From NCBI GenBank assembly GCA_965204535.1, contig CBDBEV010000001.1, positions 1,824,001 to 1,888,000 of the forward strand: a DNA stretch of 64,000 nt, in the 5' to 3' direction. Shown in pieces: positions 36,048 to 41,999 of the stretch. The notes beneath the pieces were generated by a model. That model was not told the origin of the DNA. It made no database searches and saw nothing but the letters and a program-made list of their open reading frames with translations. The number at the start of each line of letters is the position of its first letter. The stretch's first letter is position 1. Both the position numbers and the translations under genes were made by a program. This stretch comes from a bacterium. Lineage in GTDB: Bacteria > UBA8248.

Positions 36048-37106
36048 ATGCCCGAGTCGAGATACGACCCGCATCGCGGGGAATGGACGCTCATCGCGCC
36101 CGACAGGCGCGCGCGACCCCATCCCGCGCATTACGCGAAGGCCACCCCCGCAGAAGAAGACCCGGCTTGTCCTTTCTGCCCGGGCAACGAAAGCGCGACG
36201 CCGCCCGAGGTCGGAGCCATCAGGGACGAGGGCGAGGAGAACGCGCCCGGCTGGCGCGCGCGCTGCGTGGCGAACAAATACCCTGCCGTCGGTAGCGGAG
36301 AGCCCGCGCGTGCGAGCGAGGGCGTCTTTTCGTCACTCCTCGGCGGAGGACGCCACGAGGTGCTCATCGATTCTCCCCGTCACACGAAGGGCTTGGCTGA
36401 TTTGGGCGAAGCGCACGCGGGTGACGTTCTGGCCCTGCTGCAGGAAAGAGCGCGTGCGCTCGCCGACGCCCCGGGCGTTCGCTTCGTCTGCGCCTTCAAG
36501 AATCACGGCGCGCAGGCGGGCGCATCCATTCTCCATTCGCACTTTCAGATACTCGGCCTCCCGGTCCACACCGGAACCTTCGAGAAAAAGCTGGACATAG
36601 AAACCGCATTCTATCAGGAACGAAATGCCGCGCTTTTGGATCACATGCTGGAAGCTGAACGCGAAGGCGGAGAGCGGATGGTGGAAACAGGCGAAGAGGG
36701 CGCCGCCGTCTTCTGCCCGTGGGCGTCGCGCTTTCCCTATCTCGCCCATATCACCCCCTGGCCGACCGAAAGCTGCTTCACCCGAAGCGCACCCGAGACC
36801 CTCGTCGCCGTCGGGGCCGCGGTGGCGCGAAGTTTAAGGCGTTACAAGGAGCTTCTCCACGACCCGCCCGTCAACCTCTCTTTTCTGCTCGCGGCGAATG
36901 AAGTGGAGGAAAACCTTGCGGCGCATCGCTGGCACATCGAGCTTTTCCCGCGCCTCACGCCGCAGGCTGCCCTGGAGACGGGTTTGGGCGCGCACATCAA
37001 CGAAGTGGCTCCAGAGCACGCCGCCGAGAAACTAAGAAGCGTTGCCCCCAAGGCGCACGCCGCATCATCTTCTGCCTGTTTTCACAGAGGACCCGACCAT
37101 GAATGA
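36048..37106 (+). CDS. galT: Galactose-1-phosphate uridylyltransferase (GalT)-like HIT protein
   Basis: CPFCPGNE, NKYPA, HEVLID, NHGAQAGASILHSHFQ (HxHxQ). Confidence 0.8.
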   Translation: MPESRYDPHRGEWTLIAPDRRARPHPAHYAKATPAEEDPACPFCPGNESATPPEVGAIRDEGEENAPGWRARCVANKYPAVGSGEPARASEGVFSSLLGGGRHEVLIDSPRHTKGLADLGEAHAGDVLALLQERARALADAPGVRFVCAFKNHGAQAGASILHSHFQILGLPVHTGTFEKKLDIETAFYQERNAALLDHMLEAEREGGERMVETGEEGAAVFCPWASRFPYLAHITPWPTESCFTRSAPETLVAVGAAVARSLRRYKELLHDPPVNLSFLLAANEVEENLAAHRWHIELFPRLTPQAALETGLGAHINEVAPEHAAEKLRSVAPKAHAASSSACFHRGPDHE

Positions 37107-38154
37107 AAAGAATCCCCACTCCACCGTTTCGTTTCTCACGGGCGGCGACATCGCGCCCGACAGGGCTTCCGCCAAGGGCATGTTCGGCCAACTGGGAAAA
37201 CTGTTCCGCGGCGCCGATTTTTCTTTCGCGAATCTCGAGAACGCGCTATCGACGCGCGGCGAACTCATGAAGGGGAAGGCGACCAAGCACCGGGGACACC
37301 CCTCTCTGGTGGCGGGACTCGTGGATGCCGGCTTCGACGCGGTGGGAATCGCGAACAACCACCTGCTCGATTTCGGGGTTCCCTCTCTCGAAGAGACCAT
37401 GGTGACGCTGCGCCGCGCGAGGATCCCTTTCACGGGCGCGGGAATGGACCTGGAAGACGCGGGAGCCCCCGTCGTGCTCGATCGCGGCGGGCTGAAGGTT
37501 GGCCTGCTCGCCTATTCGTCCGTGCTGCCGCAGGGCCACGCGGCCGGCGCGGACGAGCCCGGCGTGAACCCCCTGCGCGTCAAGACGTCCTACACGCCGC
37601 TCAGAAACCTGGACGAATACCCGGCCTCCGAACCCGTCATCCACTCCTGGGCGGTGGCGGAAGACCTCGCGCGGATGAAAGAAGAGGTCGCTCGGCTCAA
37701 GACCGAGGTCGACCTCGTCTTCGTCTACCAGCACTGGGGGGCAAGCATGCGCCACGAGGTGCACGAGCATCAAAGGGAGATCGGGCAAGCGGCGATCGAC
37801 GCGGGCGCGTGCGCCGTCTTCGGCGGACACCAGCACGTGCTCTCCGCCATCGAGTTCTACAACCGCCGGCCCATCATCCACTGCAGCGGGAATCTGATTT
37901 TCGACGAAGTCGAACCTTTCTTCACGGATGCGACGCTTCAGTCGTTTCTGCTGGGCGGACGCATGGACAAAGAAGGGCTGAGCGACCTTCACCTCATCCC
38001 CTGCCGCTGCGGCGTGGGCGGCGCGCCGAAACCCCTCTCGCCGAGGCGCGGTGAGGGCCGCGAGATCGTGGATATGATGCAAAGATTCTCCGCGCCTTAC
38101 GGAACGGAAGTCGCCGTAAGGGACGGAGAGGTGGCCGTATCGCCGCTCGGATAA
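37099..38154 (+). CDS. CapA (PGA_cap) family metallophosphoesterase-like protein
   Basis: GGDI, FANLE, IANNHLLDFG, HWG, GGHQH, SGNLIF. Confidence 0.85.
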   Translation: MNEKNPHSTVSFLTGGDIAPDRASAKGMFGQLGKLFRGADFSFANLENALSTRGELMKGKATKHRGHPSLVAGLVDAGFDAVGIANNHLLDFGVPSLEETMVTLRRARIPFTGAGMDLEDAGAPVVLDRGGLKVGLLAYSSVLPQGHAAGADEPGVNPLRVKTSYTPLRNLDEYPASEPVIHSWAVAEDLARMKEEVARLKTEVDLVFVYQHWGASMRHEVHEHQREIGQAAIDAGACAVFGGHQHVLSAIEFYNRRPIIHCSGNLIFDEVEPFFTDATLQSFLLGGRMDKEGLSDLHLIPCRCGVGGAPKPLSPRRGEGREIVDMMQRFSAPYGTEVAVRDGEVAVSPLG

Positions 38155-38206
38155 GAATGAGAAAGGCCCGCGGAAGCCAAACCCTCGTTCGCCGGTTTCG
38201 TTCGTT

Positions 38207-38611
38207 CTACAGCGCGCGCGCCATGAGGCTCCGGATGCTCGCAACATCCACGTCGCCCGTCGAGCGGCCCTTTTCCTGTGCGCCCTTGAAGACGATGATC
38301 GTCGATTGCCAGCGAACGCTGTGTTCTTTCAGGAAATCGCGCTGGGTGTCGTAGTCCACCGCGAACGCGGCGGCGTTTTCGAACTTCTTCTCTTTAATCA
38401 GGGACTGAAGCAGCGGCACCTGCTGCCTGCACGTCCCTCACCACTCGGTGTGGACGACTACGAAAATCGTCTTTCCGTCCTTTTGGGCCTGGGCGAACGC
38501 CTTGGTCTCATAGGGCTTCCACCCTTCCAGGGCGAGCGCGGCCTGCGGCAAAACCAGGACGGCGGCGAGCAAGGCCAAACCAAACATAAGCAGGAGAGAT
38601 CGCATTTGCAT
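38207..38611 (-). CDS. Exported thioredoxin-family selenoprotein (W-U-G-T-C), 134 aa
   Basis: RBS GAGGAG, ATG at 38611, signal peptide. In-frame TGA at 38440-38438 sits at the first Cys position of WCxxC (HTEW*GTCRQQ). The frame continues into a thioredoxin C-terminal half (VDYD...VRWQSTIIVFKG). A SECIS-like hairpin follows the TGA. Confidence 0.85.
38401..38437 (-). promoter_or_regulatory. Putative bacterial SECIS element
   Basis: GGGAC-GUGC-AGGCAGC-[AGGUGCC]-GCUGCUU-CA-GUCCC directly 3' of UGA; the G-containing apical loop begins 16 nt after the codon. Confidence 0.7.
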
Positions 38612-38721
38612 GGCTCCTCTGGTGTTTAGACGGCTTGGAACTCTCGTGATTTGAGATGATACCACGAATCCGCCTGTCTCGGTGGTCTCGGCGCGCTTCG
38701 GGCCGAAATCGTTCAAGGCAG

Positions 38722-39480
38722 CTAGTTCACATACTGGCCGCCGTTCACGTCGATGGTCGCGCCCGTGACGTAGCCCGAACCGGGGGTGGAGAAATACCAG
38801 ATCGCATCGGCGATGTCCTCGGGCTCTCCGCCGAAGCCCACGGGCAGGTTCGCCACTATCTGCGGCACGCGCTCCTGGTGCACCAGGCGAAAGCGCTTGG
38901 TGAGCGTCACGCCCGGGGCTACGGCGTTCACCGTGACGCCGTGGGGAGCGAGTTCCACCGCGAGTCTCCTCGTGAAGCCCTGCATGGCGGATTTCGCGGC
39001 GCTGTAGACCAGGGATACGTTCGCCAGGGCGTCGCGCGCGGAGATGGACGAGACGTTCACGATGCGGCCATAGCCTCTCTCTTTCATCGGAGCCGCCGCC
39101 GCCCGGGTGGCGAGATAACAACTCGTGAGGTTCCATTCGACGATCTTTTCCCACTCCGCCTCATCGAGGTCCTCGATATCGGACACCTCCACGAAACCGC
39201 CCGCGCAGTTCACCAGAATGTCGAGGCGCTCCCACGTTCCGAGCGTGCGGGCGAAGAGAAGGTCGACGTCTTCTTTCCGGGCGGCGTCGCCCTGGACGAA
39301 TATGGCGTCGCCGTGCGCGCTCACCGTGGCCAGGGCCGCCGAGCCGCGGTCCGGGTCGCGCCCCGTAATCACCACCTTCGCGCCCTCATCTGCGAAGCGC
39401 ACCGCCGTCGCCAGGCCGATGCCGTCGGTCGCGCCGGTGACGATGGCGACGTGATCTTTTATCGAGGATCGCTCATGCAC
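38722..39480 (-). CDS. Short-chain dehydrogenase/reductase
   Basis: TGATDGIG, VNCAG, YSAAK, VNGG. Confidence 0.9.
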   Translation of the reverse strand: MHERSSIKDHVAIVTGATDGIGLATAVRFADEGAKVVITGRDPDRGSAALATVSAHGDAIFVQGDAARKEDVDLLFARTLGTWERLDILVNCAGGFVEVSDIEDLDEAEWEKIVEWNLTSCYLATRAAAAPMKERGYGRIVNVSSISARDALANVSLVYSAAKSAMQGFTRRLAVELAPHGVTVNAVAPGVTLTKRFRLVHQERVPQIVANLPVGFGGEPEDIADAIWYFSTPGSGYVTGATIDVNGGQYVN

Positions 39481-39493
39481 GCGATTGTCCTTT

Positions 39494-40255
39494 CTAGTGA
39501 ACGTACCTGCCGCCGTTGACGTCGAGCGTCACGCCCGTGACGTAGCGCGCCTCGGGTCTGGCGAGATACCACACGGCGTCGGCGATGTCCGCGGCGTCCG
39601 CCACGCGGCCCGCCGGTATTTTCGCGATTATCTCGGACAGTCTGTCCTTATGGACCACGGCCGTCCTCGGGGTGAGCACCACGCCCGGGGCGACCGTGTT
39701 CACCGTGACGCCGTGGGGAGCGACTTCCACCGCCAGCCGCCTGCCAAAGCCGAAAAGGCCCGCCTTGGCGGCGCTGTAGGCCAAGCCCGTCTCGATGACG
39801 GAATCGCGGCCCGACTGGGAGGAGATGTTCACGATGCGGCCATAGCGTCTTTTCTTCATGACGGGCATCACCTCGCGCGCGCACAGGTAGGCGCTCTTCA
39901 AGTTCAAGTCCACGGCCCTGCGCCACTGCGCCTCATCCAAATCTTCGATGAGCGGATTCTCCACGAAGCCGCCTGCGCAGTTCACCAGAATGTCGATGCG
40001 CGCCCACTCGTGAAGCGCCTCGGCCACGGCCGCTTTGACCTCGCTCGCCGAGGTGGCGTCGGTGTTGACGAAGCGGGCCTCGCCGCCCGCCTCGCGTATC
40101 CGCTGCGCGGTCGCCTCGCCCTGCGTCTGGTCGAGATCCAACAACACGACGCGCGCGCCCTCATGCGCGAGGCGCCCGGCGATTGCCTCGCCGATGCCCA
40201 CCGCGCCCGCCGTCACGAGCGCCACGTGTCCTTGAATCGAGGATTTGCCTTCCAT
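39494..40255 (-). CDS. Short-chain dehydrogenase/reductase (paralog of the neighbouring gene)
   Basis: TAGAVGIG, VNCAG, YSAAK, VNGG. Confidence 0.9.
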   Translation of the reverse strand: MEGKSSIQGHVALVTAGAVGIGEAIAGRLAHEGARVVLLDLDQTQGEATAQRIREAGGEARFVNTDATSASEVKAAVAEALHEWARIDILVNCAGGFVENPLIEDLDEAQWRRAVDLNLKSAYLCAREVMPVMKKRRYGRIVNISSQSGRDSVIETGLAYSAAKAGLFGFGRRLAVEVAPHGVTVNTVAPGVVLTPRTAVVHKDRLSEIIAKIPAGRVADAADIADAVWYLARPEARYVTGVTLDVNGGRYVH

Positions 40256-40314
40256 CTTGCTCGCCGCCTCCATGAGTGCCGGATTATAGCGCAACGCCTC
40301 CACCTTGACAGCCG

Positions 40315-40890
40315 TCAGGGTGCTTGTGCGGAGACGAAATAGGTGTTGCCGTCGAAATCCCACCACCGGGCTTTGCGAAAGCCCGCATCGCGCAATTCGT
40401 TCACGAGCTCTTCGGGTTCGAAGCGCGCCTCAAGGGGCGGCCCCATGTCCATGGGCTTCTTGTGCCAGTCGATGAGCGTGATGGCGGCGCCCTTCCTCAT
40501 CGCGCGCCTTGAGTCGGCGAGCATGGGCTGGACGTCGGACACTCCATGGAGCACGAACGCGATGAGGACGAAGTCCGCGCACGCATCCGGAAAAGGAATT
40601 CGCGAACCCTGGTTTCGCTTCGCCGTAAGATTCGCGTAGCCGCGCTCTTCGGCTGACGATTTGAGTTCCCTGATCATCACCGGGGAGATGTCGCAGGCGA
40701 ACACGCGACCGTTCTTTCCCACCACCCTGCAGGCGGGAACCGAGAAATAACCGGGTCCGCAGCCGATGTCCAGGAAACTCATGCCGCGCTCAAGGCCCAG
40801 GTCCCGCAGCGTCTTGACGGGCGGCATGGCCCGGCGCCTTCCCCTCGTGAGCAGGAGATGGCGGTTTCGGACGGGAAGCGTCCACTCCAC
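40315..40890 (-). CDS. Class I SAM-dependent methyltransferase
   Basis: FLDIGCGPG motif I, DISP, IDWHK...GPP; start uncertain (GTG at 40890). Confidence 0.8.
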   Translation of the reverse strand: MEWTLPVRNRHLLLTRGRRRAMPPVKTLRDLGLERGMSFLDIGCGPGYFSVPACRVVGKNGRVFACDISPVMIRELKSSAEERGYANLTAKRNQGSRIPFPDACADFVLIAFVLHGVSDVQPMLADSRRAMRKGAAITLIDWHKKPMDMGPPLEARFEPEELVNELRDAGFRKARWWDFDGNTYFVSAQAP

Positions 40891-40907: not shown

Positions 40908-41999
40908 TCAAGCCTCGTCCTCGATATAGCCGCCGAGCGCCTCTCGTATGAAATCCAGAGGATGCCCCTCTCTGATGAGCATGAAGCCCTCCGCCAAGCA
41001 TTCGAGCTTCCTGCGCTCCCTGTCGAGGCGCGTCTGCCCCTTTCGGCTGAGGAGCCTCTCGACGTCTTCTATCGTGGCGCCCTCGAGCGCCCACTTGAGC
41101 CCCGTCTTGAGGAGCGGTTCCTGAATCCATTCGAGGCGCTCCGCAATCGCGCCGCCCTCATCGCGCGACGCCAGGCCCGCGAGCTCCACGCACAGGCTGA
41201 TGATGTCGACCGACGCCTGGGCCGAGGGAGAAAACCGGACGCCCGGCAGGCGCTCGTAATCCGCCTCGCCCTCGGGCAGAAAGGCAACGAGTCTCGCGCG
41301 CGCACGATCCTCGCTCACGCCTTCGAGTATCGCCACCGCGCCCTCGATGGCGATCTCCTTGTTCCTTTCCGTCGCTGCGAGGGAGGACTCGATTTGCCGG
41401 GCGAGAATCATCTCGGCCTCATCCCAGGGCGCCTGATCCACCAGCATCCGAAGGCCGGTGGAGAAAATACCGTCCGGGCTCCGCTCGAGAGCCGGCTCCA
41501 GCGAGAGCAGCCCGTGCTGTTCCGCCCGCGCGGCCAGAACGACGATGAGCGACACGGCGTGCTCGGCCTTGGCTTCAGAGGAGTGAAACGCGGCGAGCCC
41601 CTCTTCGAGCGTCCGGTCCAGCGGGGGGATGGAGTCGTCGGCAGGCCCGTCGAACGTAATGTCGCCGTGGTTCTTCATGGCGTAGGCGGTCTGCATCAAC
41701 ATCTGGCGCGCTTCGACGCTTCGCTCGATTTCCATGGAGCCTGAGCGCTCGATTTCCTCGCGCATGTGGACCGCGTTCTTCGAAGATACGTTCCTGAGCA
41801 CACGCTCGACCACCCGCGAATCGGCATCGCGAAGCGCCAGAACGAGGATTTCGGGATCCATGCGCTCGATGACGCGCCTGAGCGCGCGGCCCGACATCTC
41901 CGCGAAGGGGGTCAGGTCCGGATTCTCGCCGGGAGGAAAATGATGAAAGCCGGGGCCTCCCATGCCGCCGTCGCCCCAGCCGTCGCCGCTGAAATTCAT
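40908..41999 (-). CDS. Soluble fusion protein: FliG C-terminal domain plus two MotA-like cytoplasmic domains
   Basis: LVLALRDAD...VLRNVSSKNAVHMREEI...EARQML (FliG_C-like). AEQHGLLSLE...FSTGLRMLVD...IAIEGAVAILEG and a second repeat (LLKTGLKWALEG...LAEGFMLIREG) are MotA-like. No transmembrane segments. Confidence 0.7.
   Translation of the reverse strand: MNFSGDGWGDGGMGGPGFHHFPPGENPDLTPFAEMSGRALRRVIERMDPEILVLALRDADSRVVERVLRNVSSKNAVHMREEIERSGSMEIERSVEARQMLMQTAYAMKNHGDITFDGPADDSIPPLDRTLEEGLAAFHSSEAKAEHAVSLIVVLAARAEQHGLLSLEPALERSPDGIFSTGLRMLVDQAPWDEAEMILARQIESSLAATERNKEIAIEGAVAILEGVSEDRARARLVAFLPEGEADYERLPGVRFSPSAQASVDIISLCVELAGLASRDEGGAIAERLEWIQEPLLKTGLKWALEGATIEDVERLLSRKGQTRLDRERRKLECLAEGFMLIREGHPLDFIREALGGYIEDEA

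Follow-up and report, generated by a model that had tools for sequence, protein, structure and literature searches.

A very likely selenocysteine-containing thioredoxin gene with a predicted export signal, recorded as two open reading frames in a UBA8248 bacterium

The window, a stretch of 64,000 nucleotides from contig CBDBEV010000001.1 of a UBA8248 bacterium, carries on its minus strand a reading frame (38611-38207) that runs from a leader through KTIFVVVHTEW, a single internal TGA (38440-38438) and GTCRQQVP to a terminal ARAL, with 76 codons up to the TAG stop (38209-38207). The original prediction, made from the letters alone, took this frame to be an exported thioredoxin split in two by ORF calling. 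Frame and motif are as it described them, on the minus strand, and the protein collection does list the two halves separately, an N-terminal one of 55 residues (from 38605) and a C-terminal one of 70 residues (from a GTG). Read through the TGA, the frame encodes a protein of 132 residues (38207-38605, minus strand) to which its sequence, its match to PF00085 and its AlphaFold2 model assign a thioredoxin fold. The two ORFs of the databases are thus very likely one selenocysteine (Sec)-containing thioredoxin gene. Two in-frame ATG codons, at 38611 and 38605, could open it. From the sequence, the second is the more likely start, since the GGAG of a Shine-Dalgarno-like AGAGGAG (38614-38620; similar in orthologs) lies 8 nt from 38605 but 2 nt from 38611, since two orthologs carry a stop between both ATGs, and since the 55-residue form of the N-terminal half is the only one on record. 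Residues encoded at 38531-38605 form a predicted signal peptide by hydropathy, similar to the leaders of full-length Sec forms; its basic start, hydrophobic core and ALA cleavage site make export to the periplasm highly probable.

A promoter scan found no sigma-70 site at the gene. A terminator-like hairpin (38162-38186) lies between it and the convergent PGA_cap gene, a weak call given that three such sites were found and 0.9 were expected. On its plus strand, the surrounding segment (36048-40366) contains genes of GalT-like and PGA_cap/CapA-like type; two SDRs lie upstream on the minus strand, and this gene order is conserved in the genus alone. Also upstream, on the minus strand (40908-41999), is a protein of 363 residues with a FliG C-terminal domain and MotA-like segments, below the NCBIfam cut-offs and conserved in the genus. 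Several ORFs at 28.8-46.2 kb of the window read like what we take to be mnmG, mnmE, yidC, rnpA and dnaA.

The assignment to the thioredoxin fold is based on a PF00085 score of 40.6 bits (cut-off 23.5) and on an AlphaFold2 model with a pLDDT of 88 overall and about 97 over the mature domain. The first Foldseek match to this model was Trxlp of Edwardsiella (PDB 5ZF2, rmsd 0.8 Å), which was also the best whole-domain sequence hit (E 2e-15). The in-frame TGA (38438-38440), read as Sec56 (U56), aligns with the first Cys of the family's WCxxC motif, and the second active-site residue, Cys59 (38429-38431), falls in an invariant alignment column. The protein shares with Trxlp (5ZF2, 5ZPV) the motif at the WCxxC position, the Gln at +6 and QST in the cis-Pro loop (38300-38308); it differs in that identity is 32% and in that Trxlp has Cys where the source protein has Sec. 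Canonical TrxA traits are absent: the loop carries QST instead of Pro, an N-terminal leader is present, and the score against the TIGR01068 (TrxA) equivalog model is 44.2 bits, with a cut-off of 96.8. Among NCBIfam thioredoxin-like selenoprotein families, 12 matched at E<=0.01 and none exceeded its cut-off. The protein does carry the features of a Trxlp-like exported thioredoxin family that was defined in this analysis and is not curated: W-[CU]-x-x-C-x-x-Q, QST..FKG, a leader and a length of about 130 residues. QST in place of xPT, which had been singled out as unusual, turned out to be the norm of this subfamily, being present in 98 of 111 representatives with Pro in none (13 could not be assigned). 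The active site reads UGTC/USTC, as against the usual CP[TV]C of the family.

We then considered how the TGA is distributed. A strong match to the gene was present in 21 of 41 genomes searched, the source genome included, and all 21 close homologs (50-99% identity) carry TGA at the same codon with both flanks intact. A family profile matched in 32 of 51 genomes of the phylum, with a TGA within 32 of the 33 matches; at the 30 phylum loci that were parsed, the Sec codon is TGA in 29 and TGT in one. More distant homologs have Cys at this position (19 aligned, of 23 hits), and CxxC was present in all 124 representatives of at most 175 residues among the best 150 family matches. This is the pattern that the original prediction expected of an alignment, Cys in homologs and conservation on either side of the TGA. 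A degenerate pattern run over the species collection returned 32 hits, 31 of which are family members with UGA. Twenty-seven of these come from records titled Nitrospinota, Tectomicrobia or just bacterium, and four from Rokubacteria/Methylomirabilota, whose genomes contain selA; the remaining hit, L085, was rejected as a chance match. Of all the loci collected, L277 and L278 did not parse and were left out. The Sec machinery whose presence elsewhere in the genome had been anticipated was found, with selA, selB, selD (itself with a TGA) and tRNA-Sec all above cut-off.

Directly 3' of the TGA lies a hairpin (38401-38437, minus strand) that folds as originally described: a GGGAC/GUCCC base, an AGGCAGC/GCUGCUU upper stem (38428-38422 paired with 38414-38408) and a 7-nt apical loop, AGGUGCC (38421-38415), with 16 nt between UGA and loop. 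A 46-nt piece containing it has a minimum free energy (MFE) of -22.3 kcal/mol (z -2.8; none of 200 shuffles was equally stable), and three longer pieces gave weaker z values (-2.2, -1.4 and -1.7). Pairing probability in the upper stem is 0.99 in the source gene; among 500 Cys contexts, about 0.8% reach the same folding stability. Published criteria for bacterial SECIS elements (PMC13188914, Fig. 2 legend) ask for a loop of 3-9 nt, an upper stem of 4-16 bp, a spacing of 16-37 nt, an MFE of at most -7.5 and a G within the first two loop positions. Checked by hand, the hairpin agrees with all of them (loop 7, stem 7, AGG, 16 nt, -22.3). The Rfam SECIS covariance models gave no match to it up to E 10.

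For a comparison within the genome we used a home-made rule, one of four tried, in which the loop consists of an optional N followed by GG or GU and the stem score is at least 14. As an internal control, 60 read-through candidates had been picked by coding score, motif and paralogy, with RNA structure not used; 53 were retained for fitting their family and the other 7 were dropped. The 60 do not include 10 SDR C-terminal artefacts or two further weak seeds. The rule recognised the source gene and 43 of the 53 other Sec candidates; among 1346 TGA stops it picked out 157, and among 3000 Cys codons 541. Applied unchanged within the family, it recognised 33 of 35 Sec forms versus 3 of 71 Cys forms, which are related sequences and not independent observations (lineage Sec, 28/30; Rokubacteria Sec, 5/5; metagenome Cys, 3/64; Rokubacteria Cys, 0/7). 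An AGGU loop stands at the same +20 position in three deiodinase-like genes of the genome.

The upper hairpin, with a loop starting AG at +20, is conserved, but the long lower stem is without covariation among 25 distinct homologs, and covariation of the full 14-pair hairpin did not exceed that of shuffles in the same set. RNAalifold missed the source hairpin and returned a different stem of 3 pairs, and a synonymous-site test gave no clear extra conservation in the hairpin codons, where synonymous diversity (0.236) is hardly below that in the rest of the gene (0.254 and 0.262). A short register of 6 pairs beat all 500 shuffles; its +3 slide, which is the register of the source gene, scored equally, so that the family uses both. 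One register has a 4-nt loop, with a synonymous double change from C-G to A-U in the upper stem of 3 of the 25 sequences; the other, dominant in the source gene, has the 7-nt loop. These two registers, with their common 5' arm and loop start, appear to be the reason for the weak conservation, covariation and RNAalifold results.

Could the TGA instead have arisen by nonsense mutation or sequencing error, or be a codon reassigned to Trp, leaving a broken gene or one that encodes no selenoprotein? The two separate ORFs in the databases and the missing Rfam match would fit such a reading, which the original prediction had tied to a genome without Sec machinery or to relatives with TGC or TGT and no conserved hairpin. 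We found instead a complete set of machinery genes, a TGA kept down to about 50% protein identity between conserved flanks, and a hairpin that tracks UGA across the family. Moreover, the TGA aligns with Cys and not Trp, and TGA is the commonest stop in the gene set of this genome (1634 of 3435). We therefore consider a broken or reassigned codon extremely unlikely; the UGA is, on these sequence comparisons, almost certainly decoded as selenocysteine.

The same genome (G000) yielded about 55 selenoprotein candidates, collected by eye and not exhaustively: the 53 retained above, the selenothioredoxin and a CoA-transferase. According to PMC13326102, UBA8248 genomes are among the BSepDB top ten for selenoproteins, and 48-54 are listed for three of them, a number comparable to ours. 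The candidates include UGSC, AhpD/CMD-like, DsbA-like, OsmC-like, deiodinase-like, PrdB/GrdA/GrdB and Prx-like proteins and, further, Grx, rhodanese, MGMT, DsrE, DUF3179 and TlpA. A cluster of the glycine/sarcosine/betaine-reductase type (G000:C2:69894-74757, minus strand) contains Sec GrdA and GrdB-like genes. The CoA-transferase alpha subunit (PF01144; L109, G000:C2:146859-147605, plus strand) lies outside the window and has an in-frame TGA at C2:147084 that aligns with a Cys of its paralog (EHAC). Of 42 family genomes, 34 contain a TGA-bearing match, and each of the 10 loci examined has a strong SECIS-type hairpin whose GGC loop lies at +27. Table 1 of PMC13188914, with its 119 families, does not list this protein, and we found no report of it in the literature searched; it may represent a new selenoprotein family, one of greater novelty than the selenothioredoxin. 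Two sulfur transferase proteins of the TIGR01244/Blh type (L092, G000:C1:709102-709563, plus strand; L126, G000:C2:1923732-1924181, minus strand) carry TGA in V-H-U-K, which we take to be the catalytic Cys position of the motif. Both pass the home-made SECIS rule, and every match to this type, in 35 of 42 family genomes, contains TGA. This type is likewise not in Table 1 of PMC13188914, and no paper on it was found in the literature searched; it too, like the CoA-transferase, may be newer than the selenothioredoxin.

In a tree of the selenothioredoxin family, Sec forms fall into two supported groups: one is the source lineage (96/91), the other a clade of Rokubacteria (100/100) in which Cys forms occur as well. 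The SECIS loop is at +20 in the former and at about +31 in the latter, and the Rokubacteria type of SECIS is absent from 7 Cys relatives there. Five Sec forms of Rokubacteria/Methylomirabilota (L063, L069, L072, L083 and L270) have a stem of 9-10 bp with a GUG loop at +30 to +31. The two groups and their differing loop positions suggest two gains of Sec; AU tests did not reject a single Sec clade (p 0.30 and 0.098). The TGT form L257 (G059) is nested in the Sec clade, with 100/91 support for its grouping with a Sec sister, and keeps the hairpin, in a genome that retains selA; it is likely a recent Sec-to-Cys reversion. We rejected the idea that losing selA explains the Cys forms or the missing gene, as all 10 genomes checked have selA, including nine that carry a Cys form or no copy. 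Of 22 congeners with selA, 3 gave no match to the gene, which is thus dispensable. Another genome has a tandem duplicate (L261, G060:C25) with TGA in both copies. Contigs of related strains from two RNA libraries cover the gene, and one bridges the TGA; they carry neither strand nor level and may derive from DNA.

The Cys forms of the family are tied to ccdA. This gene lies directly downstream in all 69 evaluable metagenome Cys loci (of 77 in total, drawn from the best 80 of 571 matches; the other 8 were too short), in all 4 plasmid loci opened of 84 records, and, among the 12 Rokubacteria loci parsed (from 14 matching genomes of 201), at all 7 with Cys and at 4 of the 5 with Sec. The exported 'thioredoxin family protein' of these pairs in Proteobacteria and Rokubacteria has 33-49% identity to the source protein and shares its length, leader and QSTLIVFKG, and the partner-type CcdA proteins of Rokubacteria and plasmids are 41-47% identical. 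As PMC3322552 describes, CcdA-type proteins take electrons from thioredoxin in the cytoplasm and deliver them to thioredoxin-like proteins of the periplasm. Because of this electron transfer and of the linkage of the Cys forms, the ancestral job of the family was likely that of an envelope reductant fed by CcdA. The source protein departs from these pairs in having Sec for Cys and in that ccdA is not adjacent: it adjoins the gene at none of the 30 loci of the phylum, and a search of 51 phylum genomes did not reveal the partner type, its best hits having 23-35% identity. Neighbours of the gene are kept only within the genus and none is a redox gene; near the Sec forms of the phylum, no partner gene is conserved outside the genus. 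The source genome does encode one stand-alone generic CcdA with both Cys motifs, at C2:2708010. With the cognate partner missing, electron donor and target in this lineage are what we infer below.

A pair of this general type has been described in Bradyrhizobium. In PMC3420878, Bll1026/Bll1027 are a periplasmic thioredoxin and a DsbD-beta protein, induced by H2O2 together with Msr genes, and their feeding of a periplasmic MsrA is the authors' speculation; we liken them to the Trx/CcdA-type pair by description, not by sequence. The operon is written there as bll1027-26, suggesting a gene order opposite to that of the Trx-ccdA loci. An ECF sigma and DUF1109 pair flanks 2 of the 4 opened plasmid loci of the Cys family, a point of likeness to the Bradyrhizobium system. 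Near the metagenome Cys loci, however, ECF sigma was found at 2 of 77 and NrsF, MsrA and MsrP at none (26 loci span at least 3.5 kb), and NrsF, in which the source genome differs from the Bradyrhizobium system, was not found in that genome (95.7% complete). A link to methionine repair is thus weak. The source genome has a cytoplasmic-type msrA directly after selD (G000:C2:846411-847958) and a second msrA with a signal-like leader (G000:C2:1310151-1310759).

As a whole, these results are probably best explained by an exported selenothioredoxin that likely works in a CcdA-fed reducing relay in the cell envelope. SelB and Sec-tRNA would, with near certainty, bind the hairpin 16 nt downstream of the UGA and insert Sec56. 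The signal peptide would very probably be cleaved after ALA, freeing a domain of roughly 107 residues into the periplasm. There, it is reasonably probable that the selenolate would attack a target disulfide or other oxidised sulfur, with Cys59 resolving the adduct, and that a membrane protein of the CcdA type would re-reduce the Se-S bond with electrons from the cytoplasm. As a cognate ccdA was not found in the lineage, the single generic CcdA of the genome would have to serve. More speculatively, targets may be the MsrA bearing a signal peptide or exported Prx/TlpA-like selenoproteins.

The lack of a cognate CcdA in the phylum genomes and of a ccdA neighbour at the phylum loci would also suit a genuine exported selenoprotein with altered wiring, its cognate CcdA lost and its recycling taken over by small thiols, another selenoprotein or another membrane protein; such a protein may act as an isomerase, an oxidase or a direct oxidant scavenger and not as a CcdA-fed reductant. 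The UGTC/USTC active site in place of the family's CP[TV]C, the lack of cis-Pro and the poor insulin reductase activity of the Cys relative Trxlp (PMC6636751) lean the same way. On the other hand, a generic CcdA is present in the genome, most Rokubacteria Sec forms keep the ccdA pairing, which means that Sec is compatible with the old wiring, and the Cys revertant is otherwise the same in sequence. We regard rewiring as possible, if somewhat unlikely. Unlikely, too, and rather more doubtful, is the fuller proposition of an undescribed subfamily that gained Sec twice and whose lineage here shed its CcdA partner for a different, CcdA-independent envelope redox route.

Near-identical DNA of the gene occurs in sponge metagenomes, and the closest solved structure, Trxlp, is described as a virulence effector of a fish pathogen and reported to bind host ASK1 (PMC6636751). 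Both would fit a secreted, host-facing redox protein in sponge-associated members. Yet we saw no sign of such a role for the source protein: identity to Trxlp is low, Sec forms also come from genomes whose record titles name groundwater or deep water, Cys members are found widely and go together with a membrane electron carrier, and the leader resembles an ordinary signal for the periplasm. A host-facing function is thus quite improbable, and we favor the envelope relay.

UxxC thioredoxins (Trx, PF00085) are a verified family in the prokaryotic selenoprotein inventory of 119 families (PMC13188914, Table 1). The source protein agrees with that entry in exceeding the PF00085 cut-off, in UxxC at the nucleophilic position and in its in-ORF SECIS, and differs in its signal peptide, in QST for cis-Pro and in falling far below the TIGR01068 cut-off. 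Judged by entry names, Table 1 has no entry for the exported QST subfamily. No Sec form of this subfamily turned up in the literature searched, and thioredoxin is not mentioned in the part of PMC4436054 available; members may already be filed as thioredoxin in BSepDB. With UxxC selenothioredoxins and the selenium-rich lineage already known, novelty is moderate, and nothing in print about UxxC thioredoxins or selenium-rich UBA8248 genomes is overturned. The finding puts right an annotation error shared by an entire bacterial family, and it gives a Sec form to an envelope thioredoxin subfamily whose Cys structure is solved. The family also offers natural comparisons, namely near-identical Sec and Cys versions (the revertant with its hairpin), two SECIS designs, and members with and without ccdA, which allow a direct test of what selenium contributes to a thioredoxin in the oxidising periplasm.
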